NCBI RefSeq assembly: GCF_025725685.1
Contig: NZ_CP107008.1
Span: 684,235-716,234, forward strand
Source of the DNA: Halomonas sp. M4R1S46
GTDB taxonomy: Bacteria; Pseudomonadota; Gammaproteobacteria; Pseudomonadales; Halomonadaceae
Length of the DNA stretch: 32,000 bases
Direction: 5' to 3'
The translations under genes were made by a program, and so were the position numbers. Shown one piece after another: positions 14,926 through 31,936 of the stretch. Every line of letters starts with the position of its first letter. The stretch's first letter is position 1. A model generated the notes under the pieces. The model worked only from the letters and a program-made list of their open reading frames with translations, did no database searches and was not told where the DNA came from.

Positions 14926-15776
14926 TGAGCACCACCACCGAGAAACTGCAGAAGGTCCTGGCCCGGGCGGGCCTGGGGTCGCGCCGCGAGATGGAAGCCG
15001 CCATCGCCGATGGGCGGGTCAAGGTCAATGGCCAGGTGGCGACCCTGGGCGATCGCATCGAGAGCCGCGACCGGGTGGCCCTCGATGACCGGCCGGTGAC
15101 CCTGCGGGCCGCCGACGAGGTGCCGCGCCGGGTGATCATGTACAACAAGCCCGAAGGCGAGCTGTGCACCCGCAAGGATCCCGAGGGGCGCCGCACCGTC
15201 TTCGACCGGCTGCCACGCCTCAAGGGCGAGCGCTGGATCGCCATCGGCCGGCTGGACATCAACACCAGCGGCCTGCTGCTGTTCACCACCGACGGCGAGC
15301 TGGCCAACCGCCTGATGCACCCCTCCACCCAGATCGAGCGCGAGTACGCCGTCCGGGTGATGGGCGCGGTCAAGCCGGATCAGGTCAAGGCCATGGTCGA
15401 GGGGGTGATGCTCGACGATGGCCCGGCCCGCTTCACCGATGTCCAGGAGTTCGGCGGCGAGGGCATCAATACCTGGTTCCACGTGGTGATCATGGAAGGC
15501 CGCAACCGCGAGGTGCGCCGGCTGTGGGAGTCCCAGGGGCTGACGGTCAGCCGCCTCAAGCGGGTGCGCTACGGTAATATCTTCCTCGACAAGCGCGCCA
15601 AGGCCAGCGAGTGGGTGGAGCTTAGCCAGGACGAGATCGACGACCTGGCCGAGATGGCCGGGCTGCCGCCGCGCAAGGTGCCGGAGCTGACGCCCGACGA
15701 GAAGAACCGCTGGAGTCGCGACAAGCACAAGCGCCGGCCGGTGCAGGCGATGCGCAAGCCCAAGGCACGTCGTTAG
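14925..15776 (+). CDS. rluB: 23S rRNA pseudouridine(2605) synthase
   Basis: [19 protein letters not shown]...[25 protein letters not shown]...[31 protein letters not shown]...[12 protein letters not shown] is near-collinear with E. coli RluB. The C-tail is basic. Confidence 0.88.
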
Positions 15777-15874: not shown

Positions 15875-15950
15875 GGGTCGTTAGCTCAGTTGGTAGAGCA
15901 GTTGGCTTTTAACCAATTGGTCGTAGGTTCGAATCCTACACGACCCACCA
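15875..15950 (+). tRNA. tRNA-Lys (anticodon UUU), copy 1
   Basis: GGGTCGT TA GCTC AGTTGGTA GAGC A GTTGG CTTTTAA CCAAT TGGTC GTAGG TTCGAAT CCTAC ACGACCC ACCA. This is a 76-nt cloverleaf with an encoded CCA. Confidence 0.95.
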
Positions 15951-15980: not shown

Positions 15981-16056
15981 GGGTCGTTAGCTCAGTTGGT
16001 AGAGCAGTTGGCTTTTAACCAATTGGTCGTAGGTTCGAATCCTACACGACCCACCA
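15981..16056 (+). tRNA. tRNA-Lys (anticodon UUU), copy 2 (identical to copy 1)
   Basis: Same 76-nt sequence as 15875-15950, separated from it by a 30-nt spacer. Confidence 0.95.
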
Positions 16057-16125: not shown

Positions 16126-16170
16126 GTTGCCTGCCGTTCCCGTGCCTGCCCTTGACATCCTGCATGCTAC

Positions 16171-16189
16171 GGGGGCATATCTGGGGGCA
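16171..16189 (+). repeat. Left copy of 19-bp direct repeat GGGGGCATATCTGGGGGCA (candidate attL core)
   Basis: It is identical to 31918-31936. It lies 115 bp after tRNA-Lys copy 2 and 32 bp before the integrase ATG. It overlaps a possible int promoter (-35 TTGACA at 16152-16157). Confidence 0.6.
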
Positions 16190-16221: not shown

Positions 16222-17469
16222 ATGTCGACCCTGCGCCAGCTCAACAAGCTGACCGCCACCGCCGTCCGCAACGCCAAGCCCCGCGAGAAGACGTACCGCC
16301 TGGCTGACGGTGGGGGCATGTACCTGGAAATCACGCCAGCTGGGGGCATGTACTGGCGGCTGAAGTACCGCCACCATGGCAAGGAGAAGCGCCTGGCGAT
16401 CGGCGTCTATGGCGAGGGTGCCGGCAAGGTGTCGCTCGCCCAGGCCCGCAATGCCCGCGACGAGGCCAAGGAGATGCTGGCGCAGGGACTGGACCCCAGC
16501 ACCGCCAAGCGGCTCGCCAAGGAGCAGGGCAGGGCGGACGCCGATAACACCTTCAAGGCCGTGGCCACCGAGTGGCTGGAGCACATCCACAAGCATGAGG
16601 TGGTGCCCGCCCACTACGACCGCAACAAGCGCCGCCTCGAGCGCGACATCTTCCCCACCCTGGGCCACCGGCCGGTCGGCGAGATCTCTCCTCCCGAGCT
16701 GCTGGACTGCCTGCGTAAGGTCGAGAAGCGGGGGCACCTGGAGACCGCCTCGAGGATCAAGACCGTCTGCGGCCAGGTGTTCCGCTACGCCATCTCGACC
16801 GGCAAGGCCCGGCGCGACCCCGCGGCCGACCTGCGTGGCACCCTGCGGCGCGCCAGGACCCGGCACTTCGCCGCCGTCACCGATCCCAAGGAGATTCCCG
16901 CCTTGCTGCGGGCCATCGACGGCTATGGGGGCACGCCGGTGGTGGTGGCCGCCCTCAACCTGTCGCCCCTGGTCTTCGTCCGTCCGGGTGAGCTGCGCCA
17001 CGCCAAGTGGGCCGACTTCGACCTGGAGGCGGCGACCTGGTCCTTCCAGCCCAGCAAGAAGGCCGACCCCCTGATAGTGCCGTTGCCCAGCCAGGCGGTG
17101 GAGATCCTGCGCGACCTGCAGGGCCTCACCGGCCGCGGCGACTACGTGTTCCCCAACATCCGCGACAGCAAGCGCCCGATGAGTGACAGCACCATCGGCG
17201 CCGCCCTGGACACCATCGGCTACAAGAACCGGATGACCGCCCACGGCTTCCGGGCCATGGCCAGGACCGTGCTCGCTGAGCGCCTCGGCTACCCCGAGCA
17301 GTACATCGAGCAGCAGCTGGCGCACAAGGTCCGTGACGCCAACGGCCGAGCCTACAACCGGACCAAGTACCTGGAGCAGCGCCGGGAGATGCTGCAGAGC
17401 TGGGCCGACTACCTGGACGCCATGCGCGATGGCGCCGGCAATGTGGTGCCGATCCGGGGGGGAGCGTGA
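16222..17469 (+). CDS. int: Tyrosine recombinase, P4-type integrase
   Basis: 415 aa. The N-terminal arm-binding-type region reads LTATAVRNAKPREKTYRLADGGGMYLEITPAGGMYWRLKYR. The C-terminal catalytic region carries HGFRAMARTVL, QLAH and AYNRTKY (R-H-R-Y type residues). It is adjacent to a tRNA gene. Confidence 0.92.
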   Translation: MSTLRQLNKLTATAVRNAKPREKTYRLADGGGMYLEITPAGGMYWRLKYRHHGKEKRLAIGVYGEGAGKVSLAQARNARDEAKEMLAQGLDPSTAKRLAKEQGRADADNTFKAVATEWLEHIHKHEVVPAHYDRNKRRLERDIFPTLGHRPVGEISPPELLDCLRKVEKRGHLETASRIKTVCGQVFRYAISTGKARRDPAADLRGTLRRARTRHFAAVTDPKEIPALLRAIDGYGGTPVVVAALNLSPLVFVRPGELRHAKWADFDLEAATWSFQPSKKADPLIVPLPSQAVEILRDLQGLTGRGDYVFPNIRDSKRPMSDSTIGAALDTIGYKNRMTAHGFRAMARTVLAERLGYPEQYIEQQLAHKVRDANGRAYNRTKYLEQRREMLQSWADYLDAMRDGAGNVVPIRGGA

Positions 17470-18317: not shown

Positions 18318-18409
18318 TGTTGACCGCTGACCCTACCCCCGGCTATGCTCCAACCGTCACGGCAAAATCCGTGACCCGGTTTGGCGACCGGAAATATCCA
18401 AGGCGCACC

Positions 18410-18438
18410 AGCGCCCTCCGCGAAACAGGCGCTTTTTT
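18410..18438 (+). terminator. Possible terminator after alpA
   Basis: AGCGCC (18410-18415) / GGCGCT (18428-18433) stem with a 12-nt loop, followed by TTTTTT. Confidence 0.45.
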
Positions 18439-18592
18439 CATGCCTGCACTTCGCGAATATGGCGGCTGTGCGTGGGAGACCCTCGGGTCTGCCGGTTCCC
18501 TTGGATGCCGGTTCGCCAACCTGCGTACAGCCGCCCCCAATCACTGTTTGGCGACAGTCGGGGACGGTTCCATCATCCAAGGAGCCCTACCC

Positions 18593-19322: not shown

Positions 19323-19540
19323 CCCCGACCGACATCACCATGGACATCGGCGCCACCGGCCTGGTGGATGCCATCGATCGCACCCGCTATGCCATGGCCA
19401 AGCAGGTACCGAGTGTTGCGGATGAGCTGGCCACCAACTATGGCCCGCTGGTGCTCACTGCCCACGAACAAGCCGACCTGCGGATATTCCTCGACGAGAT
19501 GCTCCGTCGCCGGATGGGGATCCTGGAGGCGCAGCTATGA
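19319..19540 (+). CDS. Hypothetical protein (73 aa)
   Basis: ATGA-coupled at both ends. Confidence 0.55.
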   Translation: MTPTDITMDIGATGLVDAIDRTRYAMAKQVPSVADELATNYGPLVLTAHEQADLRIFLDEMLRRRMGILEAQL

Positions 19541-20061
19541 CGACCCCGCAATCGACAGCGCCCCGCCGGCAGGGCGGGGCACCTAAAGCGAGTTTTGGAA
19601 GGGCTCCACAGCAGTCTAGCGCGCTCGGCGCCGACGTGCACCGGCTGCTGGCGCGACTGGACAAGGTGAAGACCAACGGCCCGGAGCGCTGGCTGGCCTG
19701 CTGCCCTGCGCACGACGACCGCTCACCGAGCCTGGCCATCCGTGAGACCGAGGACGGCACGATCCTGGTGAAGTGCTTCACCGGCTGCCCGACCGCTGAT
19801 GTGTTGGCCGCCGTGGGCATGGAGATGTACGAGCTATTCCCCAGGCGCGACAACGATGCCTTCCGCGCCAGCAAGCGCCCCGGGGAGCGATGGGTGCCCC
19901 GGGACGTGCTGGCCGCCATCGCCCGCGAGGCGTTGGTGGTCATGCTGGCAGCTGAGGCGGTCCACGCCGGCCGGCCCCTGGAGCGTGTCGACCTGGCTCG
20001 TCTGGCCAAGGCGTCCGGCCGGCTGCGTGGAGCTGCTGAGGAGGTGGGTTGCCATGTCTGA
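19537..20061 (+). CDS. Stand-alone primase-type CHC2 zinc-finger protein
   Basis: CCPAHDDRSPSLAIRETEDGTILVKCFTGC follows the DnaG zinc-binding pattern CPFHxExTPSF...CFGC. At 174 aa it has no recognisable Toprim or primase catalytic region. It overlaps the next gene by 8 nt. Confidence 0.6.
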   Translation: MTTPQSTAPRRQGGAPKASFGRAPQQSSALGADVHRLLARLDKVKTNGPERWLACCPAHDDRSPSLAIRETEDGTILVKCFTGCPTADVLAAVGMEMYELFPRRDNDAFRASKRPGERWVPRDVLAAIAREALVVMLAAEAVHAGRPLERVDLARLAKASGRLRGAAEEVGCHV

Positions 20062-21106
20062 ACACGATGCGGGAATCAGCTGGCTCGATAGGCAGGCGGC
20101 CACGGCGACGCGGCTGCGGCCAGCTCCCAGCGATGGGCCACCCACGCCCCCAGCCACCGCCTACGAGGCGACCGCCGCCGAGCTCCAGCTGAACCCCATC
20201 AGCCTGGGTGACTTCCTGAGCCTGGACATTCCACCGCGAACCATGCTGCTGGCGCCCTGGCTGCCTACCAGCGGCCTGGCCATGGTCTATGCGCCTCGAG
20301 GCATCGGCAAGACCTGGTTTGCGATGTATGCGGGCTATGCCGTGGCCGCGGGGGGATCGTTCCTCGGCTGGGAGGCGCCAGCACCGGCGCCCGTGCTCTA
20401 CCTGGACGGCGAGATGCCGGCTATCGCGCTTCAGGAGCGGTTCGCGAGCATCATCCAGAGCACGGAGTACGAGGCGGCGCCCGAGGCCCTGCAGCTGCTG
20501 ACCCCTGACCTCCAGCCCAAGGGGATGCCGGATCTCTCGACCCTCGAGGGGCAGCTGGCGCTGGAGCCCTTCACCGATCCCGCCCGCCTGATCGTGGTGG
20601 ACAACATCTCCACTCTCTGCCGGACCGGCAAAGAGAACGAGGGGGAGAGCTGGTTGATGGTGCAGGAGTGGGCGCTGCGCATGCGGGCCCAGGGCAAGAC
20701 CGTGCTCTTCGTCCACCACGCCGGCAAGGGCGGCCAGCAGCGGGGCACCAGCCGCCGCGAGGACGTGCTGGATACCGTCATCGCGCTCCGCTATCCGAAG
20801 GGTGAGGACGAGGATGCCCAGGGCGCCAAGTTCGAGCTGCATTTCGAGAAGAACCGCGGCTTCTATGGCGAGGACGCCAAGGGGCGCGAGATCGAGCTGG
20901 TGAGCGCTCCCAGCGGGGCCACCACCTGGTCCTGGCTCCCGCTGCAGGAGAGCACCTATCAGCGAGTCGTCGACCTGCTCAATGAAGGGCTGAGCCCGAC
21001 CGAGGCGGCCCGGGAGCTGGACATCCACAAGAGCACCGCCACCCGGTACCGAAAGCGCGCCGACCGCGATGGCCTGCTGGCCAAGAAGTCAGGGGGTGAG
21101 TCATGA
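20054..21106 (+). CDS. RecA-like AAA_25/RepA-type replicative ATPase (putative helicase) with C-terminal HTH
   Basis: Walker A YAPRGIGKTW and Walker B-like LIVVDNIS are present, followed by VLFVHHAGKGGQQRGTSRRED. The C-terminus LNEGLSPTEAARELDIHKSTATRYRKRA is HTH-like. Confidence 0.75.
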   Translation: MSEHDAGISWLDRQAATATRLRPAPSDGPPTPPATAYEATAAELQLNPISLGDFLSLDIPPRTMLLAPWLPTSGLAMVYAPRGIGKTWFAMYAGYAVAAGGSFLGWEAPAPAPVLYLDGEMPAIALQERFASIIQSTEYEAAPEALQLLTPDLQPKGMPDLSTLEGQLALEPFTDPARLIVVDNISTLCRTGKENEGESWLMVQEWALRMRAQGKTVLFVHHAGKGGQQRGTSRREDVLDTVIALRYPKGEDEDAQGAKFELHFEKNRGFYGEDAKGREIELVSAPSGATTWSWLPLQESTYQRVVDLLNEGLSPTEAARELDIHKSTATRYRKRADRDGLLAKKSGGES

Positions 21107-21636
21107 GCGATCGCCCAGAGTTGCACGTTGCACCCCCTAGGGGATGCAACCCGCAACTTTCCCAAGAAGAGGGGGCAACTTTTCCCCCGTCCGATGCAAC
21201 CGGTCATGCAACCGGCAGCCTGAAAGCCTTGGCTGACAAGCGGTTGCGGGAGATAGAAAGCAACCGGGCGTGCAACTCGCCTGCAACCGAGGGGCCTGAA
21301 AGCGTGCAACTTTCGGCCGACTCGGCGACCCCTGAAGTTGCACCCGAGGCAGGACCCGAGACCGTGAGCCGGATGGACTGGTTGGAGTGGGTCACGGCCC
21401 GGGTACCGCTGGTGCGTGAGGATCGGGAATACGTTTGGTCCCGCCTGGCCACACTGCCGCCCCATGCCATGGAGCGGGCGGCCAAACGATACGTCCAGAC
21501 CTGGGCCGAGGCCGCTGCGGCCGAGCCGAAGCCCCACCGGAAGGAGAACGCCGGGCGACGTGCCGCGAACCACACCCTCCTGGCCTTGATCCAGCCGAAG
21601 TGCTGGCGCTGGAAGCAAGAGCACCGTAGGCCGTGA
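21103..21636 (+). CDS. Hypothetical protein; 5' half coincides with the iteron array
   Basis: Its ATG sits in an ATGA overlap with the helicase stop. The N-terminal 85 aa are low-complexity because they translate the TGCAAC repeats. The C-terminal part from ATG 21373 (MDWLEWVTARVPLVRED...) looks more protein-like. The true start is uncertain. Confidence 0.45.
   Translation: MSDRPELHVAPPRGCNPQLSQEEGATFPPSDATGHATGSLKALADKRLREIESNRACNSPATEGPESVQLSADSATPEVAPEAGPETVSRMDWLEWVTARVPLVREDREYVWSRLATLPPHAMERAAKRYVQTWAEAAAAEPKPHRKENAGRRAANHTLLALIQPKCWRWKQEHRRP
21120..21342. repeat. Iteron cluster, putative origin of replication
   Basis: Forward (T/A/C/G)GCAAC copies start at 21145, 21152, 21174, 21195, 21207, 21259, 21271, 21282 and 21305. 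Inverted GTTGCA copies start at 21120, 21127 and 21337, with a variant GTTGCG at 21243. CCTGAAAGC also occurs twice (about 21219 and 21294). Confidence 0.6.
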
Positions 21637-21721
21637 GCAACCAGGAGTCTGAACCATAATCCATACCCCTATCACGCCTGCCGTTGCCTACCGCTGACCC
21701 GATCGACCTGGCGGTGTGTGC

Positions 21722-22060
21722 ATGGACACACCGCGCATCAACGACTGGCTGGACTCCGAGCTCGTGCAGATCAGTCGCAAGGAGGCGGCCCTGCCAGCGG
21801 CCGTTTCCTTGCCTGAACTGGGCGATGGCAACGGCCTACCGTGGGATCTCGACGAGCTGCCCGACATCGATCTGATCACCCGGGACGGCGAGGTGTGGGC
21901 AAGGGGTACGCAAATTGCTCACGCCTTGGGCTACCACTGGCTGCCCCAGGGCCACCGACCATGTGAAGACGATGGGGCTGATCATCACGCGTCACGAACC
22001 CAACGGGATCGGCTGACACCCGCCCCACTGACCACCCCGAGCCACACCATGAGGAATTGA
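21722..22060 (+). CDS. Hypothetical protein, possibly a degraded Bro-N/antirepressor-like remnant
   Basis: DLITRDGEVWARGTQIAHALGY resembles the Bro-N/KilAC-type motif (xxGEPWFVAKDVAxALGY), but similarity is lost immediately afterwards. The SD is weak. Confidence 0.3.
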   Translation: MDTPRINDWLDSELVQISRKEAALPAAVSLPELGDGNGLPWDLDELPDIDLITRDGEVWARGTQIAHALGYHWLPQGHRPCEDDGADHHASRTQRDRLTPAPLTTPSHTMRN

Positions 22061-22202
22061 CTCGACACCTTGGGCCCGCTGGTCCCGGCGCTGAACAACA
22101 CTCGGCTTCGCTCACTCACGCTCTCGGCGGGGAGCCTTATCATTCCTGCGCCCTGTGGATAACTATGGCGAAGTTCACAATATTTTGTGCCATTTGTGGA
22201 AG

Positions 22203-22214
22203 ATATGCGCATAT
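22203..22214. promoter_or_regulatory. Perfect 12-bp palindrome ATATGCGCATAT (candidate operator)
   Basis: Read directly from the sequence. It lies in the AT-rich gap just upstream of TATAAA (22219-22224). A second inverted repeat, CACAA-TATT-TTGTG, sits at 22176-22189. Confidence 0.35.
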
Positions 22215-22233
22215 GTGCTATAAACAAGGGAGG

Positions 22234-22249
22234 CTGTATATATGGACAG
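22234..22249. promoter_or_regulatory. LexA (SOS) box-like site CTGTATATATGGACAG
   Basis: It fits the gammaproteobacterial CTGT-N8-ACAG consensus with an AT-rich centre, matching 14 of 16 positions of CTGTATATATATACAG. It lies just downstream of the -10-like TATAAA and ahead of the tape-measure/terS operon. Confidence 0.6.
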
Positions 22250-22256
22250 GTAACGT

Positions 22257-22427
22257 ATGGGGCATCCGCTAAACCTTCCACCTCGTGGCAAGCAGATGAA
22301 GCCAACCCGCCACCGACGGCGTGAGCTGTACGACATGCTCGAACGGATGGCCAACGAAGGTGATCCCCACGCCGTTGGCTGGCTCCTGTTCCTCAGTGAG
22401 CCGGTACCGAGATCTGCAGCGAAGTAA
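22257..22427 (+). CDS. Small hypothetical protein (56 aa), not in the ORF track
   Basis: Hand translation gives MGHPLNLPPRGKQMKPTRHRRRELYDMLERMANEGDPHAVGWLLFLSEPVPRSAAK*. It is preceded by a strong SD AAGGGAGG (22226-22233) and a 3-codon mini-ORF ATG GAC AGG TAA (22242-22253). Confidence 0.35.
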   Translation: MGHPLNLPPRGKQMKPTRHRRRELYDMLERMANEGDPHAVGWLLFLSEPVPRSAAK

Positions 22428-22494
22428 TACTGGAACACGCTATCCATCGCTTTCATCGCATCCGGTGCTGGCGCGAACTGAAACAGGAGGGTCA

Positions 22495-25308
22495 ATGGCC
22501 GATCTCGAGAAAACCGTCGCAATCATCTTCGAGGGCGTGGACCGGATGGGGGACGGGGTGAACTCCGCCACCCGCAAGATCGATGGCCTCGCCGGCAGTG
22601 TTCAGAGCGCTACCCAGCCGCTGGCGGATGCCACGATCGGCCTCGCCAAGTTCGAGGGCGCCCTGATCGCCGGTGGCGCCGCCGCCACAGCCTTCGCCGT
22701 GAAGTTGGCCGGTGACTTCGACACGCAGTTCCGCGAGATCGCCACGCTGATTGGCCAGCCAAGCGAGGCGCTGGGCGACTTTCGCGAGGAACTGCTGGCC
22801 TATGGGCGCGAGTCCAGCCAATCACTCGACCAGGTCAACTCGGCGGTCTACAGCGCCATCTCGGCGGGCATCGATTACACCGACTCCCTCGAGGCGGTGC
22901 GACAGGCCGAGCAGCTGGCCATTGCCGGTAAGGCCAACCTCGGGGAATCCCTGACGGTGCTGGTGTCCTCGCTCAACGCCTATGGCGTGGGCATGGAGGA
23001 GGCCGAGCGCTTCTCCGACCTGCTGTTCCAGACTGTGCGCAGCGGCCAGACTACGCTCCCCGAGCTGGGGAGCTCGCTGGCCAATGTGACAGGCCTGGCG
23101 GCCACCGCCGGCGTCAGCTTCGATGAGCTGCTCTCGGCCGTGGCCACGCTCACCGCCACCGGCTCCAGCACCAGCGAGGCCATCACGCAGGTTCGCGGGG
23201 CCATCTCCAACATCCTCAAGCCGACCAGCCAGGCAAAGGATCTGGCGGCGGATCTCGGCCTCGAGTTCAATGCCACTGCCCTGGAGTCGAAGGGCTTCGC
23301 CGGCTTCATGGAAGACGTAGGCGAGGCCACCGGGGGCAGCACGGAGAAGATGTCACTGCTGTTCGGTGACGTGAACGCCTTGAACGGGGCCCTGACGCTG
23401 ACCGGCTTGGGGGCCGAGAAGTTTGCGGAGACCATCCTCGATATGGCGGGCAGTGCTGGCGCTACGGCCGATGCCTACGGGGAGATGACCGAAGCCATCG
23501 ACAACGGCAGCCAGCGGATCCAGAACGCTATCAAGGCCGCCTTCGTCGGGTTCGGGACGCCGCTGCTGGACGAGTTCGGCAGCGTTCAGGACGCCATCGC
23601 CGCCATCTTCAATGCCATCGGCGCCTCGATCGAGTCGGGCCAGCTGTCCGGCTTCGTGGATCTCCTCGAGAAGGAGTTCCAGGGTCTCGAAAAAACCTTC
23701 CAGGAGGTGGCGCAGAATCTCCCGGATGCTCTCGAGCAGGCCGACTTCTCCAGCTTCTTCGATGGCATCGAGGCCCTACAAGATGCGGTCAGCAACCTCT
23801 TCGATGGCGCCGACCTGAGCAGTACCGACGGACTGGTCTCGGTGATCGAGACGCTGGGCCTGGGGTTCGAGGCGCTTTCCCAGTACGTGGCTGGCGCTAT
23901 CGAGGGCATTGGCCCCTTCCTCCGCCAGCTGGCCGACCTGACGCAGTTTTTCCTGGAGCTGGACCCGGCGGTGTTCGCGGCGGCCGGTACCATCGGCGGG
24001 TTATCGATCGCTATCAACACCCTGGCGACCGCGGCGTTGACCACGACCGGCGCCGTTCGCGGGCTCGCCGGGTCGGGGGGCGTGATCGCCAAGGGCACGC
24101 CAATCCTCAAGGGCATGGTCAGCGTTCTCACCGGCCCCCTCGGCCTGGCGGCGGCCGCCGCCGCGGTGGGCACCGCTGTTTACAAGGCCGGCGAGCAGTT
24201 CGTCGACCTCAATCGCGACCTGAAGGAAAGCCGCCGCGCCCACTCCGATCTGGCGGAGGCGGTCCGCGAGGGCAGGCAGGTATGGGACTACGCCATCGGC
24301 GACTACGTGGCCGCTGGTGAAGCCCAGGTGACCCTGCAGGACCGGGTCAACGCCAGCCAGGAATCCCTGGCCGACTGGGTGCGCAGCCTGGGGGAGACCT
24401 CGACGGAGACCGAGCGGAATGAGCGGGCTCTACGATCAGCTGCCGCCCAGTACACCAACTGGGATCGTGTAGTCGAGGAAGCCTCGAAGAGCAGCGAGTC
24501 GTTCAACCTGGCGCAGGAAAAAAACGCCGATATTCTTCGCGATGTGCTCGAGGCCATCGGCCCCCTCGAGGATGGCTGGAAACGGGTGGCTGATGGTGTC
24601 TACGAGAACGTCATCAACACCGCAGAGCTTGAAAATGCCTACCAGAAGGTAGCAGACGCCTTCGATGAGGGGCTGATCTCCGAAGAGCAGTTCAAGAACC
24701 TGACGGACTACTACGAGACCCTCAAATCCGGGGCTGACGCCGGTGTAGAAGGCAACAAGGACCTCGCCGATGCTGCGCTGAAAACCGAAAAGGCGATCCT
24801 CGAGGAGCGCAAGGCGGTCCTGGCGACCGAACAGGCGCTCGAGGAGATGGCCAGCAACGAGAACATCAAGGCCATGGAGTTCACCGCCGAGATCAAGGTG
24901 GCCGAGGCCGAGGCCGAGGCGCGCAAGGTCGAGGCAGTATTCAACAGCATAGGGACCGCCGTCGAGTCGACGGGGGAAACCCTGTCGTCGATGTTCGGCA
25001 CCTTGGGTCAGTTCGACTCACGCACCTCCAGCGGTTTCCGGGAGCTGGAGGACATCGTCCAGGACGAAGCGAAGCGCCGCGACAAGCTGATCAACTCGCA
25101 AACCAAGCACCTGGATGCCATGACCGACAACCTGAAGGCCAGGACGGAGGCCCTCCGGAATGGCGACGGGCTGGTCAAGATCGACTCCACCGGCCTGGAG
25201 CCGGCGCTGGAGATGATCCTCTGGGAGATCCTCGAGAAGATCCAGCTACGCGCCAACGCCGAGGGCCAGGAGTTCCTGCTCGGCCTCAACTCAGGATCGA
25301 GCGTATGA
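22495..25308 (+). CDS. Phage tail tape-measure-like protein (TP901-family core type)
   Basis: 937 aa from ATG 22495 (SD AGGAGGG).
- N-terminal third: blocks typical of the tape-measure core (FREIATLIG, AVYSAISAGIDY, LAIAGKANLGESL, LFQTVRSGQTTLPELGSSLANVTGLAATAGVSFDELLSAVATLTATG, GAISNILKPTSQAKDLAADLGLEF, LFGDVNALNGALTLTG).
- Centre: Gly/Ala-rich hydrophobic segments (VFAAAGTIGGLSIAINTLATAALTTTGAV..., LTGPLGLAAAAAAVGTAVY).
- C-terminal third: coiled-coil-like. Confidence 0.85.
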   Translation: MADLEKTVAIIFEGVDRMGDGVNSATRKIDGLAGSVQSATQPLADATIGLAKFEGALIAGGAAATAFAVKLAGDFDTQFREIATLIGQPSEALGDFREELLAYGRESSQSLDQVNSAVYSAISAGIDYTDSLEAVRQAEQLAIAGKANLGESLTVLVSSLNAYGVGMEEAERFSDLLFQTVRSGQTTLPELGSSLANVTGLAATAGVSFDELLSAVATLTATGSSTSEAITQVRGAISNILKPTSQAKDLAADLGLEFNATALESKGFAGFMEDVGEATGGSTEKMSLLFGDVNALNGALTLTGLGAEKFAETILDMAGSAGATADAYGEMTEAIDNGSQRIQNAIKAAFVGFGTPLLDEFGSVQDAIAAIFNAIGASIESGQLSGFVDLLEKEFQGLEKTFQEVAQNLPDALEQADFSSFFDGIEALQDAVSNLFDGADLSSTDGLVSVIETLGLGFEALSQYVAGAIEGIGPFLRQLADLTQFFLELDPAVFAAAGTIGGLSIAINTLATAALTTTGAVRGLAGSGGVIAKGTPILKGMVSVLTGPLGLAAAAAAVGTAVYKAGEQFVDLNRDLKESRRAHSDLAEAVREGRQVWDYAIGDYVAAGEAQVTLQDRVNASQESLADWVRSLGETSTETERNERALRSAAAQYTNWDRVVEEASKSSESFNLAQEKNADILRDVLEAIGPLEDGWKRVADGVYENVINTAELENAYQKVADAFDEGLISEEQFKNLTDYYETLKSGADAGVEGNKDLADAALKTEKAILEERKAVLATEQALEEMASNENIKAMEFTAEIKVAEAEAEARKVEAVFNSIGTAVESTGETLSSMFGTLGQFDSRTSSGFRELEDIVQDEAKRRDKLINSQTKHLDAMTDNLKARTEALRNGDGLVKIDSTGLEPALEMILWEILEKIQLRANAEGQEFLLGLNSGSSV

Positions 25309-25781
25309 GCAAGAAAACGCCCCTCCAGGGGGGGCTGGGTGACTCTGGCGCTGAAGACAAGCCGGCCGGGTATTGGCAGCTGGTGACGAAGCTGGCCGTC
25401 GCGAACCTGGCCGAGAAGAAGCATCGCCGCCAGCGGCTGGCGCACCTGGAAGCCCTGCGCGCCCTGGTGAAGGACCCGAGGGGAGTGGACTGCCCTGAAA
25501 TCGAGGCCGCTGGGCGGGCGCTGGCTGAGGCGCCGGAGGTGGCGATTCTGGAGCCATTCAATGCCTTTTCTGCTGCGGTGGCGGCTCGGGCCCGCGAAAC
25601 AACAGACCTGGGGGAGGGGCAGGCACTGAGTCACCTGTCCACGCGCGTGATGGAGGAGATGACCGCCTTGAGTGAGGCCATTGATGCGCAGCTGGCGGCC
25701 AGCAATGAAGCGGCCCTTATTCGGGCTCAGGCGCTTCGCTTGATGGAAGAGCAGAAGAAGGGGCCGGGGGTGCTTCATTGA
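25305..25781 (+). CDS. Hypothetical protein, paralog A
   Basis: 158 aa, with an ATGA overlap with the tape-measure stop. It shares GV(D/S)CP...AAG.AL, PF.AF and GEG...L..R.M..M..L blocks with the next gene. Confidence 0.6.
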   Translation: MSKKTPLQGGLGDSGAEDKPAGYWQLVTKLAVANLAEKKHRRQRLAHLEALRALVKDPRGVDCPEIEAAGRALAEAPEVAILEPFNAFSAAVAARARETTDLGEGQALSHLSTRVMEEMTALSEAIDAQLAASNEAALIRAQALRLMEEQKKGPGVLH

Positions 25782-25914
25782 GCGCGGCTGCGAGCATCTC
25801 GCTACTAGCCGGGGGCATGGTACATGTGCCACCCGCCGCTCTGCTGGCGCCTGAACGCCCCGGCCTCCTGGGCCAGCCGCGCCCTCGAACGAAAGCAAGG
25901 GGGAGGGGGTATTG

Positions 25915-26349
25915 ATGCCGACCAGCATGATCATCGAACTGGGCGAACGCGAGGCCGCCGCCCGCGCCCGCCGCGACTATCACCACCAGCGCTTCGACCG
26001 GGTGCTGGACAACCTCAAGGCGCTGGGCGCCCGATCCCCGGGCGTGTCCTGTCCGAAAGTCCAGGCCGCCGGCCTGGCGCTGTCGAAGGCCTCCCGTGGC
26101 GAGGTGCAAAAACCCTTCATGGCCTTCGCTGACGCGCTGCTCGAGTACGCCCGCACCGAACCTGAAAAAGACCAGGGGGAGGGGGTGACGCGTCTGGCCA
26201 GCCGGGCCATGGGCCATATGCGCGAACTGGCACACCACGTTGACCATGAGGTCACGGCGCAGCGAGAGCTCCAGTTATTCGCGCACTTGCATGAGCAGGC
26301 GCGCCAGCAGCTGGGTGAGGCGTCCCAGCCGCGAGGGGCGGGGGCATGA
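25915..26349 (+). CDS. Hypothetical protein, paralog B
   Basis: 144 aa from ATG 25915 ([15 protein letters not shown]). Paralogous to 25305-25781: GVSCPKVQAAGLALSKA vs GVDCPEIEAAGRALAEA; PFMAFADAL vs PFNAFSAAV. Confidence 0.6.
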   Translation: MPTSMIIELGEREAAARARRDYHHQRFDRVLDNLKALGARSPGVSCPKVQAAGLALSKASRGEVQKPFMAFADALLEYARTEPEKDQGEGVTRLASRAMGHMRELAHHVDHEVTAQRELQLFAHLHEQARQQLGEASQPRGAGA

Positions 26350-26471
26350 GCGCCACCGCGCCCCAATCCCTGACGGCGGCGGCTGGTGCGTGTCAGCGGC
26401 AGAGCGCCGAGCTGGCGCTGGGCGCTCCGGCAGCGTCCTCGCGCGCTCGCCAGGCTTCAGCCGGCAGAAAA

Positions 26472-26494
26472 TCGCGGGTCCTTCTGGCGGCCCC
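26472..26494 (+). repeat. 23-bp repeat copy 1 (TCGCGGGTCCTTCTGGCGGCCCC)
   Basis: It matches 29825-29847 at 22 of 23 positions in direct orientation. It lies in the apparently non-coding stretch upstream of terS. Confidence 0.6.
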
Positions 26495-26687
26495 TACCCC
26501 GTCCACGGGGACGCAGAGTCCCGGAGTTCGACAAAATTTCGGTGCCCCTGGGTGCTCCACCGCAGGTGGCAGCAAGCCCAGGCATGGCGCGGGATCTGAG
26601 CTGTACGAGCTGAGCATGGCGGCACGAGGATCGGCCGCCTCGATGTACAGGTGAAGGAGGAGCGCCGCTGGCGCTGACAGGCAGACG

Positions 26688-27197
26688 ATGGGCGAGGTGA
26701 TCGGACGCGAACAGGCCTACCACTGGTCGATCAGCCGCATCGCCGAAGCGATCGGTCGCGACCGGCGCACGGTGGCGACGCTGATCAAGGATGCCGGGAT
26801 CCCGCCGGCCGGTACCCGTCGCGGGAATCCCGTGTACCGGCTGGGTGATGTGGTCGACGCGATAAGCACCGACCGCCGCCCCGCCGCCAGTGGTATCGAC
26901 ATAAACGACCTGATGCCGCAGGACCGCAAGGCCTGGTACCAGTCGGAGAACGAGCGGGTGAAGCTGGAGCGCGAGCTGCGCCACCTGGTGCCGGTGGACG
27001 ATGTCCAGCGAGAGATGGCCGCCCTGGCCAAGGCCATGGCCTCCAGCCTCGACAGCCTGGCCGACATGCTCGAGCGGGATGCCGGGCTGCCGCCGGAGGC
27101 GATTGAGATGGTCGAGCGTGTGACCGACGCCATTCGCGAGCAGATGTACCGCGCGATCATCGAAAACGACGACGAAGACGCCGCCGCGGAAGCGTGA
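26688..27197 (+). CDS. terS: Nu1-like small terminase subunit (winged-HTH DNA-packaging protein)
   Basis: SISRIAEAIGRDRRTVATLIKDAGIPPAGTRRGNPVYRLGDVVDAI parallels lambda Nu1 (KKQLADIFGASIRTIQNWQEQGMPVLRGGGKGNEVLYDSAAVIKWY). It is followed by a coiled region ENERVKLERELRHLVPVDDVQREM, typical of this TerS family. The C-tail is acidic. Confidence 0.68.
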   Translation: MGEVIGREQAYHWSISRIAEAIGRDRRTVATLIKDAGIPPAGTRRGNPVYRLGDVVDAISTDRRPAASGIDINDLMPQDRKAWYQSENERVKLERELRHLVPVDDVQREMAALAKAMASSLDSLADMLERDAGLPPEAIEMVERVTDAIREQMYRAIIENDDEDAAAEA

Positions 27198-27242
27198 CGG
27201 CCACCGCCGGCGCCGCCGGCCAACGAGAAGGAGAGCAGCACC

Positions 27243-28310
27243 ATGACCACTGCGACGAAAAGTAAGGCGCCGGCCGCGGCGGAAAGCTGGAGCACCTGGC
27301 TCGAGCAGCTCGACCAACTCCAGGAGGAGCGCGCCGAGATCACAGGCCTGGGCGAGGCCCGCAAGATGCTGGAGCGCGCCAAGATGGGCGTCCAGTATGT
27401 CATCCGCCTGGCCGATCACTACCACTACCCGGGCCGCTTCAAGCATTCCAGTGCCGAAGACGACACCGAGGTTCTGCTGGAACTGATGAGGCATATCCGC
27501 GCCGATACAAGTCGCGCCCTTCAGGCGACGAACTGGCACGACCAATCGGCGGAGCGCCAGGCCTACATCAAGGATCTGGACGCCCGAGCGAAGCGGGCCG
27601 CCGCCAACTTGCAGAAGGCGGCCGAAGAAGCCGCAGAGCTGGAGCATGCCCGCGGGGAAGTCGATCAGCGTCTCGAGGATCTGGAGGCCAAGGCGCCGAA
27701 GGCCTCGGCAACCAGCCTGGCCGCCCTGCGCAAGGAGCGCGACGCCGCCACCGCCGAGCGTGACCGGATCGCCAAGTCGCTGGGCAACATGACAGCGGAT
27801 GACAGCCCGCTGGCGCTGGCGCGGGAAGCCGAGCAAACCGCCCAGGAACGCCTCGATGAAGCGGAGGCACTGCTGGCCATGGGTGAGGCCAATGACGAGG
27901 ACGTGAAGGCCGCGAAGAGCGAGGCGGACAAGGCCCACAAGGCGCTGGAGGCGCGTCAGGCCGACCACCGCAGCCAGGATGCCGCCCGGCGCGGCATGTC
28001 GCGCAAGCTGGAGCAGGTCGACAGTCGCCTGGAAACCCTGAGCCGGGCCTATCGCCAGGCGCTGGGGCGTGTGCGGCATGCCGACCTGGCGGCGCTCGAA
28101 GGCGAGATTGTCGAGGAGATCGAGCGCATCGCCCAGCAACGCCTCCAGGCCCTGGCCGCGATCTATGCCGACCTGGAGGAGGCCGAGCCGGGCAACTCAT
28201 ACGGCCCCGCTCGCCTCGAGGTGAAACTGCCCCACCTCCACCACCACCGGGAGGCCGACATGCTCAACGGCCACGGCCTGACGATCACCGCCTATGGGCG
28301 GGAGGAGTGA
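27243..28310 (+). CDS. Coiled-coil protein (355 aa), function unknown
   Basis: SD GAGAAGGAGAG lies upstream. Long A/E/R/L/K heptad-like stretches occupy the central ~200 aa. No enzymatic motif was seen. Confidence 0.65.
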   Translation: MTTATKSKAPAAAESWSTWLEQLDQLQEERAEITGLGEARKMLERAKMGVQYVIRLADHYHYPGRFKHSSAEDDTEVLLELMRHIRADTSRALQATNWHDQSAERQAYIKDLDARAKRAAANLQKAAEEAAELEHARGEVDQRLEDLEAKAPKASATSLAALRKERDAATAERDRIAKSLGNMTADDSPLALAREAEQTAQERLDEAEALLAMGEANDEDVKAAKSEADKAHKALEARQADHRSQDAARRGMSRKLEQVDSRLETLSRAYRQALGRVRHADLAALEGEIVEEIERIAQQRLQALAAIYADLEEAEPGNSYGPARLEVKLPHLHHHREADMLNGHGLTITAYGREE

Positions 28311-28313
28311 CCC

Positions 28314-28571
28314 ATGCCCAATTCAAGCCCATATCGCAGTGCCGCCTATCGCAAGGCAGCGCGCGCCGCGGCCTTCAGCCGCATCAAGGCGGAGGAAGAG
28401 CGCACGCCGGAGCGCATCGAGGAAGATCTGGCCGCCGCTCGCCAGAGAGTCGAGGAGCTGGAGCGGGAGCTGGCAGACGCCAAGCACAAAGATGAGGAGC
28501 CAGTGGAGGCCCGGCTAGACATCAATCGCATCTATGCCCGGCAGAATGGCCGGAAGGGGGAGCGGGCATGA
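28314..28571 (+). CDS. Hypothetical charged helical protein (85 aa)
   Basis: SD GGAGGAG lies upstream. Its stop overlaps the next start (ATGA). Confidence 0.5.
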   Translation: MPNSSPYRSAAYRKAARAAAFSRIKAEEERTPERIEEDLAAARQRVEELERELADAKHKDEEPVEARLDINRIYARQNGRKGERA

Positions 28572-28822
28572 TCGTCACCCGACCCCGCGGAGCCATCGTT
28601 ACCAACCCCGCTCGGCGCACCGCGGCCGAGCTGGACCAGCCAAACCTCCGCTACGCGGCACCGCTGGACCGGTGCCGGCAGCACCAGGTGGAACTCTATA
28701 CCCGCGGCGGCCGCCGCTTTGCCCGGTTGTTCGGCGAAGACCGCGAAGCCCTCCAGGCGCGTGCCGATCGCTGGCGCGCGCATATCTCGCCCAGCCTCGA
28801 GCAGCGCTGGCCAGAATCCTGA
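28568..28822 (+). CDS. Hypothetical basic protein (84 aa)
   Basis: ATGA-coupled to the previous gene and followed by a terminator. Confidence 0.5.
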   Translation: MIVTRPRGAIVTNPARRTAAELDQPNLRYAAPLDRCRQHQVELYTRGGRRFARLFGEDREALQARADRWRAHISPSLEQRWPES

Positions 28823-28866
28823 CCGTGGCTGGTTCCAGGGTGCCCGGGTCTCGTCAGCCCGGGCTT

Positions 28867-28895
28867 GGGGTCACCATATCGGTGGCCCCTTTTTT
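28867..28895 (+). terminator. Rho-independent terminator closing the tape-measure/terS operon
   Basis: GGGGTCACC-ATATC-GGTGGCCCC (9-bp stem with one G-U pair) followed by TTTTTT. An additional GCCCGGG...CCCGGGC hairpin lies just upstream (28841-28863). Confidence 0.75.
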
Positions 28896-28983
28896 CACCG
28901 TCGACCGCTGCCCCGCTGTAGGGCGCCGCCGAACGCTACCGCGCCAGCCTGCGTAATGGGCAACCACCATCGGAGGCCGTGCC

Positions 28984-29250
28984 ATGCCGATGATCAATGA
29001 AGAGATCACCCGCCACCCTGTGGAGTACCGCCGTGAGCGCCTCGAGGAGGAGCGAGACCGTCTGGAGCGGCGCCTGACCTGGGCAGTGAATCGCAAGGAG
29101 GCCAGGCAGGTCGAGCGCCTGACCCGGCAGCTGGCCGAGATCGATCGGGAACTGGAGCGGCCACCCGAGGACCTGGAGGGGCGGGGCCGGGCGACATCGC
29201 TTCGCCGGCAGTACGGCGCGGAGTTGTGTGACGCCCTTGGGTGGCACTGA
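28984..29250 (+). CDS. Hypothetical charged helical protein (88 aa)
   Basis: ATG 28984 has a GGAGG-containing upstream sequence. The protein is R/E-rich. Its stop overlaps the next ATG by one base. Confidence 0.5.
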   Translation: MPMINEEITRHPVEYRRERLEEERDRLERRLTWAVNRKEARQVERLTRQLAEIDRELERPPEDLEGRGRATSLRRQYGAELCDALGWH

Positions 29251-29524
29251 TGACTGCCGAGGCCCCGAGCTCCCTCCTCCTGCGCGGCGCCCCGGTGCCT
29301 GATGACCTCTGGGACCCGGCAGACTGCCGCGCGCTGTGGATCGCCGCCCTGGAGATGTACCTGCGCGACGCGATCGCCGCGGCCAAGGGGAGCGAACACA
29401 GGGAGGCGGTAGCGGCCCTTCACGACCTGATGGGCGGCTGGAGATGCTGGCGCGGCTGTGCGAGCCCCTGGGGCTGGAGGTGGAGTCAGTCGCCGAGGGC
29501 ATGAGGGCCAGGGCCTACTCCTGA
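29250..29524 (+). pseudogene. Hypothetical gene interrupted by an apparent -1 frameshift near 29.43 kb
   Basis: The frame from ATG 29250 reads plausibly to ...AVAALHDLMGG, then becomes W/R/C-rich (WRCWRGCASPWGWRW). The -1 frame continues plausibly as RLEMLARLCEPLGLEVESVAEGMRARAYS* and ends at 29524. Confidence 0.4.
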
Positions 29525-29769: not shown

Positions 29770-29824
29770 GTCTCGCTCCCTGCGCTGAGTGGCTTTCAGT
29801 CTAGCCTAGCGAGGCTCGATGAAT

Positions 29825-29847
29825 TCGCGGGTCCTTCTGGAGGCCCC
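29825..29847 (+). repeat. 23-bp repeat copy 2 (TCGCGGGTCCTTCTGGAGGCCCC)
   Basis: It matches 26472-26494 at 22 of 23 positions. It lies in the 122-bp gap between the BRCT gene stop and the membrane-protein start. Confidence 0.6.
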
Positions 29848-29891
29848 GCCGCCGTCATGACCGGATGCGGGGCTGGCGCTGGGTGCCGGAG

Positions 29892-30530
29892 TTATAGCCA
29901 GTTAGCCCAGTGGCGCTCGCTGATCAGATGAATGTCGCGGCCATCGCGGCGCAACTCCACGGCGTGCTGGATCTTGCGTCCGTAGTTCGACTGGGCCCAG
30001 TCATCGCTGCCCAAGTTGCCGATAACAACGAAGTGGGTGGCGCGGCTGGGGCTTTTCTGGGGCTGTCCGCCGCGCTGCACGATCTCGGCCTCGCACTCGC
30101 GGCGCGTACCAGTGACGAAGCGCCCGGTCAGCACGAAGTTAGAACCTTCGAATACGACATCCGGCACCGGGTCGCAAAGGGGTAGGGCAGTGGATTGCCG
30201 GCTGGAGCTGGAGCCGCCTTGGGTGGAGCCACCGCCAGTATAGTCGAGCAGCAGTCCGATCAGTTCGCCCTCTTCCTCGGCATCCAGAACGCCATCGCCG
30301 AGCATTTCCTCGAGGCGAGGGAAGAGCACGTTGAAAGGCCAGACGGCCAGGGCCTCGGGACGCTCTCCAAGCCACTGGAGCAGGTATTCGGCCTCGGCCT
30401 GGTTGACCGAGCCATCGGCGAGCATCCCGCGGGCCAGCCCGCACAGCTCATTGGCATCCCGGGTGGTGTTCCTGGCCATGCTGAGCCGGCGCGTGACCGG
30501 CTGGCCGTGGTGGTCGAGTTGGATAGGCAT
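29892..30530 (-). CDS. TerB-like N-domain / BRCT C-domain protein
   Basis: 212 aa from ATG at 30530 (SD GGGAGAG). The N-terminal ARGMLADGSVNQAEAEYLLQWL fits the TerB/DjlA-N type DGxxxxxExxxL motif. After a G/S-rich linker, the C-terminal FVLTGRFVTGTRRECEAEIVQRGGQPQKSPSRATHFVVIG...GRKIQHAVELR...ISERHW parallels the LigA-type BRCT domain. Confidence 0.7.
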   Translation of the reverse strand: MPIQLDHHGQPVTRRLSMARNTTRDANELCGLARGMLADGSVNQAEAEYLLQWLGERPEALAVWPFNVLFPRLEEMLGDGVLDAEEEGELIGLLLDYTGGGSTQGGSSSSRQSTALPLCDPVPDVVFEGSNFVLTGRFVTGTRRECEAEIVQRGGQPQKSPSRATHFVVIGNLGSDDWAQSNYGRKIQHAVELRRDGRDIHLISERHWANWL

Positions 30531-30746
30531 GGGACTCTCCCTTGTTATGGTTCCCTGCGGGCCGTGGGCCCGCAAGGTAGTTTGGCAAAGGGAGGTGAGG
30601 TCTGCCCGTACTGGTGCCCAGGAGCCGCGGGGAGGGGTACCCGTTTCGGGTACGCTTTCCAGGTGGTCCTCGCCGTCGCTATGGCCGGAGGTAGCTGCTG
30701 GCGCTGTTTGTTGATGTGTTCAGCTGGGATCAGGACCCGACTCAAT

Positions 30747-31681: not shown

Positions 31682-31917
31682 CGTCTGGCCCGGTGCTGGC
31701 GCCTCGAGAACATCAAATCGGGGGTCTGGGGCTGGTGACCGCGCGTGCCCGGGTGACCGGGGGCCGAGGCGGTCAGATTGACTGCCTCGGGAGGCTGGCG
31801 CCCGTGTGCGCGTGACACGACGTGTGGGCAAGGGGGCCCCAAATTGGGGATGCCTTGGGCCCCGCGCGCCCTGGTACTGAGCCCAGATTTCGGCCGAGTG
31901 GGTGATCTCGTCTTTAT

Positions 31918-31936
31918 GGGGGCATATCTGGGGGCA
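31918..31936 (+). repeat. Right copy of 19-bp direct repeat GGGGGCATATCTGGGGGCA (candidate attR core)
   Basis: It is identical to 16171-16189. It is preceded by non-coding DNA containing a 12-bp-stem hairpin (31764-31790). Confidence 0.6.

Follow-up and report, generated by a model that had tools for sequence, protein, structure and literature searches.

A putative LexA operator at the promoter of a tape-measure and terminase gene block in a Halomonas satellite-like island

We analyzed a 32,000-nucleotide (nt) stretch of DNA from Halomonas sp. M4R1S46 (contig NZ_CP107008.1, positions 684,235 to 716,234), hereafter called the window, whose right half carries a satellite-like island. On this island, an AT-rich region at 22140-22260 (43% G+C, compared with 68% in the window) precedes a small open reading frame (ORF), a phage tape-measure gene and the gene for a small terminase subunit, TerS. 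The region contains a palindrome at 22234-22249 that resembles the operator of the SOS repressor LexA. Here we describe this palindrome, its conservation in related islands and the genes that it may control.

Results

The palindrome and its surroundings

The promoter region and the first gene behind it hold the following elements.

22176-22189: CACAA-N4-TTGTG dyad
22203-22214: perfect 12-bp palindrome ATATGCGCATAT, the core of an imperfect 32-bp dyad (22193-22224)
22216-22224, plus strand: candidate extended -10 element TGcTATAAA (TG at 22216-22217, TATAAA at 22219-22224), with a predicted start at about 22231
22221-22233, plus strand: window-specific 13-nt segment TAAACAAGGGAGG
22226-22233, plus strand: Shine-Dalgarno-like (SD-like) sequence AAGGGAGG
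22232-22251: predicted LexA (SOS) operator GG-CTGTATATATGGACAG-GT, from reading the sequence and from a matrix; 16-bp core at 22234-22249
22242-22253, plus strand: three-codon mini-ORF ATG GAC AGG TAA (ATGGACAGGTAA), in or beside the box
22257-22427, plus strand: 56-amino-acid (aa) leader gene, encoding a small, basic protein predicted to form a two-helix hairpin; homologs P0121-P0126

All elements that an earlier, sequence-only reading had named in this region were recovered at their places when we read the sequence again. The 16-bp core is a palindrome of the form CTG-N10-CAG, matches the ideal CTGT-N8-ACAG and has an AT-rich center. By itself, this pattern is not significant. It occurs once in the 32-kb window, against a mean of 0.27 in dinucleotide shuffles, and the bare pattern alone proves nothing because 27 of 100 shuffles hold at least one copy.

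We therefore relied on a LexA matrix, symmetrised over 20 positions, for which 30 LexA sites of E. coli served as the training set. The window 20-mer GGCTGTATATATGGACAGGT scored 14.6 bits, the highest of 31,981 positions, and the runner-up reached 9.3 bits. The training sites scored 12.4-26.4 bits (median 20.2), which places the window site inside their range, at its weak end. An approximate heterology index, a mismatch penalty in which lower is better, was 9.4 for the window site and 1.5-9.7 for the training sites. When the local AT-rich 155 nt were dinucleotide-shuffled, 0.05% of the shuffles reached 14.6 bits (p = 0.0005). By these measures, the palindrome is a plausible but weak LexA operator.

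A host SOS box of the same type

The window begins with the umuDC genes, and its UmuD protein has exact matches on short metagenome contigs. Contig L044 (related loci are given as L numbers) is 100% identical to window bases 1-723 and provides the flank beyond the left edge of the window. Its umuD box, TACTGTTTATAAATACAGCT, has the textbook CTGT-N8-ACAG form, scores 24.3 bits and lies 15 nt upstream of umuD; therefore, the host SOS regulon appears to use the E. coli-type CTGT-N8-ACAG motif. The window site and the host umuDC box are alike in their 16-bp CTG-N10-CAG palindrome and its AT-rich core, and the window site, which lies beside a predicted core promoter, is the weaker of the two (14.6 vs. 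24.3 bits).

The box recurs upstream of a family of small ORFs

The 56-aa ORF behind the box is a real gene, judging from its homologs. These share the motif RRELYxMLxxxAxxGDxxAAGWLLLL and occur in Halomonas genomes and metagenomes. An exhaustive profile search with the small protein returned 27 proteins at E ≤ 0.001, 26 of them 45-73 aa long and one of 1038 aa with a 19-residue match. The protein had no match in Pfam, PHROG, NCBIfam or PDB. AlphaFold2 predicted a basic tail and helices at residues 18-33 and 37-47 with a mean predicted local distance difference test (pLDDT) score of 79, and Foldseek found no significant match to this model. One related island, on IMG/VR contig L010, shows the same order as the window, with an AT-rich spacer, a 58-aa ORF and a tape-measure gene.

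We then scanned the 150 nt upstream of each small-ORF homolog with the E. coli-site matrix. The boxes found in the relatives were as follows.

L010: TACTGGATAAAATGACAGTG, 16.9 bits
L036: TACTGGATAAATGGACAGTA, 20.3 bits
L046: ACCTGGATAAATGGACAGTG, 15.4 bits
L039: TACTGTACAAATAGACAGTA, 21.5 bits
L040: TGCTGTATAAATAGACAGTA, 23.3 bits
L050: TACTGTATGTGCATACAGGT, 20.6 bits
L057: TACTGGATAAAACCCCAGTA, 18.7 bits
L060: AACTGTATATTTAAACAGCT, 24.3 bits

With the window included, a box of 14.6-24.3 bits was present in 9 of the 16 related upstream regions, or about 8 of 12 lineages, and each was the sole position in its locus at that score (shuffle p ≤ 0.0015). The best hit in the boxless lineages was no higher than 2.3 bits. 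The score distribution is bimodal, since boxless loci stay below 3 bits.

CTG and CAG are invariant in the nine boxes, and TA-type flanks predominate. The right half of the family boxes is unusual, reading GACAG, and six of the nine carry G at core position 12; the more distant L050, L057 and L060 have dropped GACAG and kept the LexA consensus. Aligning the closest relatives four ways leaves 12 of 16 columns invariant within the box, compared with 14 of 94 upstream of it. Likewise, identity between the window and a relative is 75-88% within the box and 32-45% upstream. The box lies 7 nt from the ATG in the window and L010, and 8 nt in L036. A footprint of this kind would be expected if a LexA operator is under selection, and chance does not explain it.

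The gene that follows the small ORF differs among lineages. The tape-measure gene takes this place in the window, L010, L036, L037 and L046, and a homolog of the 355-aa protein described below does so in L039, L040 and L050; L059 and L060 have the tape-measure gene at a greater distance downstream of the small ORF. The constant partner of the box, as these arrangements indicate, is therefore the small ORF, leading a shuffled set of the same genes, and not the tape-measure gene. The sequence-only reading had missed this relation.

Several other loci and searches concern the box or the small ORF. L037 (7900-8060), L038 and L062 (3950-4110), one island in Halomonas sp. H5, carry the small-ORF/tape-measure/TerS module without a LexA box, and their upstream regions hold two direct repeats, GTTGTCGCTA, in its place. 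In these islands, the regulatory input looks as if it has been swapped, which would make them a natural negative control. In the H. borealis locus L001, a strong LexA box (AACTGTATGTATGGACAGTA, 20.4 bits; 15122-15141) precedes a minus-strand 73-aa ORF about 5.3 kb past the tape-measure gene, and 15 of its 16 core bases are identical to those of the window. It could mark a related SOS-controlled gene on a helper-type prophage or its neighbor. L007, L008 and L009, which are related through the replication protein, share window positions 19626-21636 and not the promoter region, and are uninformative on the box. No match was found for the small ORF by tblastn against annotated phages, for window 21000-29500 by megablast against phage records, or in an exact 25-mer scan of viral contigs, and exact-protein look-ups of the small ORF, TerS and P0156 returned no record. 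An RNA-hairpin reading of the palindrome was rejected by reasoning: 3-4 bp are possible, CTGG variants break the pairs, and the distance to the ATG ranges from 4 to 70 nt.

The candidate promoter

The TATAAA upstream of the box is preceded by TG, which would make it an extended -10 element, a feature absent from the sequence-only reading. It begins 15 nt and ends 9 nt before the box. Independently, L039 and L040 show CTGATA and TATAAT separated by 17 nt, with the -10 beginning 16 nt before the box. In L010 and L036, the box itself contains the best -10, which follows a (T/A)TGACT -35. In all of these arrangements, LexA would sit on the core promoter or start site of a predicted promoter.

In the window, the 13-nt segment lies between a conserved CATATGTGcTA and the box, and its presence gives rise to the TATAAA as well as the SD-like sequence. 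L010 and L036 lack this segment, and in an alignment of this short AT-rich sequence, (C/G)(A/T)TATGTGGTA appears to abut the box directly. The sequence-only reading had proposed overlapping translation signals at this place, a strong SD and the three-codon mini-ORF, a proposal that found no support. The SD-like sequence falls in the window-only segment, the mini-ORF owes its ATG to the conserved right box half, ATGGACAG, and relatives show no recurrence of either element. A transcript from the TATAAA would start at about 22231 and exclude the SD; therefore, the proposed -10 and SD cannot serve the same mRNA. The mini-ORF is probably incidental.

The two dyads further upstream had been proposed as activator sites that add a second input to SOS control. 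The perfect palindrome ATATGCGCATAT lies within the -35/-10 spacer, a repressor-type position, and the imperfect dyad around it reaches across this spacer and the -10 element. The perfect core is statistically marginal, as the window holds 21 perfect 12-bp palindromes against 17 expected and 4.4% of local 121-nt shuffles contain one. The CACAA-N4-TTGTG dyad is at chance level (p = 0.18). Relatives conserve neither of them as a dyad, although a CATATG(T)G motif does recur there, and the window has no match to a P2/P4-type TGT-N12-ACA activator site. With the dyads marginal or null and unconserved, neither the activator sites nor the dual input were upheld.

The proposed transcription unit behind the box

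The following features lie around and downstream of the leader gene, all on the plus strand.

22120-22135, plus strand: weak terminator-like hairpin, after the upstream replication-gene block
22495-25308, plus strand: tape-measure gene, 937 aa (PF10145, E = 3.6e-32; PHROG tape-measure families)
25305-25781, plus strand: 158-aa ORF, function unknown
25912-26349, plus strand: 145-aa ORF, function unknown
26346-26654, plus strand: 102-aa ORF, function unknown, overlapping a cos-like element (26448-26553)
26688-27197, plus strand: TerS, small terminase subunit of the DUF1441/PHROG 141 type (PF07278, E = 1.7e-41; phrog_141, E = 6.7e-49)
27243-28310, plus strand: 355-aa all-alpha coiled-coil protein
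28314-28822, plus strand: 85-aa and 84-aa ORFs closing the unit, the latter partly conserved in L010
28867-28895, plus strand: strong intrinsic terminator GGGGTCACC-atatc-GGTGGCCCC-TTTTTT, probably the unit's 3' end

The terminator at 28867-28889 is the only plus-strand terminator-like site between 22135 and 31652. No hairpin or terminator was found at 22427-22495, between the small ORF and the tape-measure gene, and the consensus scan gave no promoter-like site ahead of the latter. Because no plus-strand terminator lies between 22135 and 28867 and no hairpin separates the small ORF from the tape-measure gene, the simplest reading is that the box and the genes up to the terminator form one transcription unit of about 6.6 kb, whose genes would be co-transcribed.

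The 158-, 145- and 102-aa ORFs are conserved in L010, L036, L037 and L046 and have no Pfam, PHROG or NCBIfam match. For the 355-aa protein, AlphaFold2 predicted long helices with a mean pLDDT of 87.5; it likewise has no Pfam, PHROG or NCBIfam match, its best E value in a PDB sequence search was 0.11, and a Foldseek search with the model gave generic coiled-coil matches, none at E ≤ 0.001.

The tape-measure protein is 73-75% identical over its full length to those of complete H. borealis and H. koreensis prophages (L001, 7001-9802; L002, 7001-9808). Homology at the DNA level is confined to the gene, from exactly its ATG to its end, and no neighboring tail genes are common to both. Because the homology is bounded by the start codon and the gene end, it indicates that the tape-measure gene was captured singly, probably from a helper-type Halomonas siphophage. 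In the L001, L002 and L006 prophages, the tape-measure gene lies behind tail-chaperone genes and lacks an AT-rich promoter; the window promoter thus appears to be island-specific.

Two further sets of elements were noted in this part of the island. The cos-like element is conserved, non-coding, located just upstream of TerS and common to about 10 IMG/VR phage contigs, and a second copy of its core (AAATCGCGGGTCCTTCTGGCGGCCCC) with 86% identity lies 3.35 kb downstream, at 29822-29856. In minimal islands without the small ORF, the tape-measure gene and TerS, similar motifs, GCGGGTCCTCC and CGCGGAATTCGAC, precede the 355-aa homolog (L063, about 8790-8860; L065, about 8770-8840).

Probable LexA control and its alternatives

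We favor the reading that the palindrome at 22234-22249 is a host LexA operator on the promoter of the satellite's tape-measure/TerS unit, with a logic like that of SaPIs (pathogenicity islands found in Staphylococcus aureus), and give it a probability of about 0.72. It is supported by the conservation of the box in related islands, the host umuD box of the same type and the proximity of a promoter-like -10.

Several observations weigh against it. The window box has the lowest score of its family, and its TA flanks are replaced by GG; hence the term near-consensus, used in the sequence-only reading, fits the eight core bases and not the site as a whole. That reading had also asked how the site would score against a LexA matrix of the host's own SOS genes. 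Our score is the best in the window and at the low end of known sites, and it comes from E. coli rather than Halomonas sites; the type of the host motif is represented by one SOS box, that of umuD. The -35 candidate, GTGGAA with a 17-nt spacer, was poor by hexamer scoring, and a sigma-70 consensus scan calls no promoter at the site. In the geometry that the earlier reading described, with the box downstream of a -10-like element, the window resembles L039 and L040; the promoter itself is a prediction that the consensus scan did not return. About one third of the small-ORF lineages are boxless (L037/L038/L062, with one Halomonas genome among these three, L051-55, L058 and L059), and LexA control is therefore dispensable for the module. 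Several of the box-bearing loci share ancestry and are not fully independent. Finally, in L010 a terminator-like hairpin separates the small ORF from the tape-measure gene.

This hairpin bears on an alternative in which LexA controls essentially the 56-aa leader alone, as an effector or regulator, and the tape-measure and TerS genes are driven via the leader protein or by helper signals. Coliphage 186 Tum, a small antirepressor under LexA control, would be the model. Besides the hairpin directly after the small ORF in L010, this alternative would account for the small ORF being the sole invariable partner of the box while the next gene changes with the lineage, and for the box lying 4-8 nt from the ATG in L010, L036 and L046, as if at a near-leaderless monocistronic start. 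However, the hairpin is not conserved in L036, L037 and L046, the corresponding 22427-22495 of the window is free of hairpins and terminators with no promoter-like site before the tape-measure gene, and the small protein has no detectable similarity to known regulators. We consider exclusive control of the leader unlikely in the window; in some relatives, LexA may mainly control the small ORF.

The low score and the GG flanks could also mean that the box is a decaying relic, with the promoter rebuilt by the 13-nt insertion and the operon under another regulator. The segment at 22221-22233 does separate the box from the conserved upstream motif, and natural relatives work without any box. Yet the core remains a perfect CTGT-N8-ACAG, better than the CTGG of the closest relatives, its score is still within the range of real E. 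coli sites, and the new spacing between -10 and box matches that in L039 and L040, which makes decay improbable. It is more improbable still that a different dimeric regulator, encoded by the island or a helper, recognizes the palindrome with a specificity that happens to resemble that of LexA. The shared GACAG right half, the G at core position 12 and the near-identical core of the prophage-side box in L001 would fit such a protein, but the positions that do not vary are precisely those of CTG...CAG, with flanks of the TA type, the distant L050, L057 and L060 lose GACAG and keep the LexA consensus, and Pfam, PHROG and NCBIfam searches found no repressor gene on the island. A chance match in AT-rich intergenic DNA, as the 27% of whole-window shuffles with the bare pattern might suggest, is scarcely credible given the matrix score, the local shuffles and the recurrence of the box at the homologous place in about eight lineages with diverged flanks.

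Island context

The left half of the window is chromosomal, with umuDC, tadA, mltF, purL, radD, scpA and rluB. Two identical tRNA-Lys(UUU) genes (15875-15950 and 15981-16056, 106 nt apart) lie directly before the integrase gene (16222-17469), and the second is the likely integration target. A C4 antisense RNA was identified at 18343-18541 (Rfam RF01695, 76.6 bits; a1/b1 target repeats RF03163, 51.7 bits; also isrK) in a region conserved in L007 and L036, which suggests a P1/P4-type RNA immunity system in this Halomonas island. An AAA_25/primase-type replicon (19537-21106) and further unknown ORFs follow, and an AlpA gene lies to the right of the unit. The tape-measure gene and TerS are the only virion-type genes on the island. 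The integrase beside tRNA-Lys, the AAA_25/primase replicon, the C4 RNA, AlpA and the lack of a full virion set agree with the sequence-only reading of this region as a satellite-like island.

A 22-nt direct repeat, TA(C/T)GGGGGCATATCTGGGGGCA, occurs at 16168-16189, just upstream of the integrase gene, and at 31915-31936, after alpA, 15.7 kb apart; these copies may be integrase arm-type sites or mark an island boundary. No repeat of the tRNA-Lys 3' end was found within the window, and the island may therefore extend to the right past 32000. A 43-nt segment (21889-21931) of a 114-aa ORF upstream of the promoter has an 81% repeat downstream of alpA (31818-31860), which may point to a gene paralog or to another regulatory module. 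On the minus strand, 29892-30575 encodes a 227-aa protein (phrog_3989) whose C-terminus is BRCT-like and weakly matches, in NCBIfam, LigA and Pol III epsilon at their BRCT regions. The L036 island has a version with 85% identity, and the gene adjoins alpA in both islands.

Discussion

In the mechanism that we infer, from the promoter and its start to LexA binding, damage induction, co-transcription of the whole unit and its biological purpose, a LexA dimer in uninduced cells would sit about 9 nt downstream of TGcTATAAA, across the predicted start, and block RNA polymerase. After DNA damage, RecA* would promote LexA self-cleavage, the site would be vacated and the unit would be transcribed. The transcript would carry, in order, the 56-aa leader, the tape-measure gene, the three unknown ORFs, TerS, the 355-aa coiled coil and the two small ORFs, and end at the terminator. 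DNA damage also induces temperate helper prophages. The satellite would thereby have its helper-exploiting proteins loaded as the helper begins to make virions, as in SaPI operon I.

LexA boxes on mobile elements are known from colicin genes, integron integrases and rstA of CTXphi. Unlike these and the canonical chromosomal SOS boxes, the window box stands before a satellite unit for morphogenesis and packaging, not before a gene for repair, a toxin or a recombinase. Among temperate phages, tum of coliphage 186 and the Gifsy-type antirepressors are small genes under LexA. The window resembles them in having a LexA box directly upstream of a small element gene, and the proposed SOS trigger would work without a cleavable repressor of the element itself. 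It differs in that the 56-aa protein has no sequence or fold similarity to them and is followed by structural and packaging genes.

The closest functional parallel is SaPI operon I, a terS-containing packaging and interference operon described as being under LexA control in PMC5052747, which cites Ubeda 2007. The comparison drawn in the sequence-only reading is apt as an analogy, since here too a terS-bearing unit would be headed by a LexA box (PMC5052747). In both cases, a satellite late operon with terS is placed directly under the host SOS repressor, by prediction in Halomonas, apart from the satellite's own immunity control; here, TerS lies in the same terminator-free plus-strand block as the box and would be co-transcribed from it. 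The proteins are unrelated, with a DUF1441/Nu1-type TerS, a tape-measure protein, a coiled coil and a 56-aa leader in Halomonas. Family matches in the operon are limited to PhageMin_Tail and DUF1441/phrog_141 (Pfam, PHROG and NCBIfam), and these scans found no homologs of the SaPI operon I proteins CpmA/B, PtiA/B/M, Ppi or SaPI TerS. The two operons are thus best described as functional analogues, not homologues. In addition, the LexA motif here is of the Gram-negative type, its control by LexA is predicted from sequence, and immunity appears to rest on a C4-type antisense RNA, whereas SaPIs use the master repressor Stl.

The island shares more of its architecture with P4-like satellites and Gram-negative phage-inducible chromosomal islands (PICIs) such as EcCICFT073, namely tRNA integration, an integrase, AlpA, a primase/helicase-type replicon, a C4/CI-type antisense RNA, a terS-like packaging gene and a cos-like site. 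However, P4 late promoters use Delta/Ogr activators at TGT-N12-ACA sites, which the window does not have, and Pfam and PHROG family scans found no Sid, Psu or Delta homologs. The full-length tape-measure gene is a further difference. In Gram-negative PICIs, alpA expression is helper-dependent and independent of SOS (PMC6092414). A marine satellite survey names neither LexA nor tape-measure genes (PMC9618062), and a 2025 preprint treats tape-measure genes as exceptional in satellites (PMC12822802), which makes the cargo of this unit unusual. Our literature search found no description of LexA-controlled Gram-negative satellite operons; in the literature surveyed, staphylococcal SaPIs are the only satellites described with a late operon directly under the SOS repressor.

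Mitomycin C, lexA(Ind-) hosts and box mutants offer a ready experimental handle on this unstudied satellite family, and the sister islands that carry the module without the box provide a built-in negative control. As a broader and tentative proposal, which we hold to be possible but doubtful, a previously undescribed family of gammaproteobacterial satellites in Halomonas and marine metagenomes may have wired a helper-exploitation module (a 45-60-aa leader, a whole tape-measure copy, terS, a cos-like site and a coiled coil) to host LexA. The satellite would then sense DNA damage itself, instead of or besides its helper, and the leader would be an SOS-released effector that starts helper piracy. 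If the LexA control predicted here is true, direct SOS sensing would have arisen independently in unrelated satellites.

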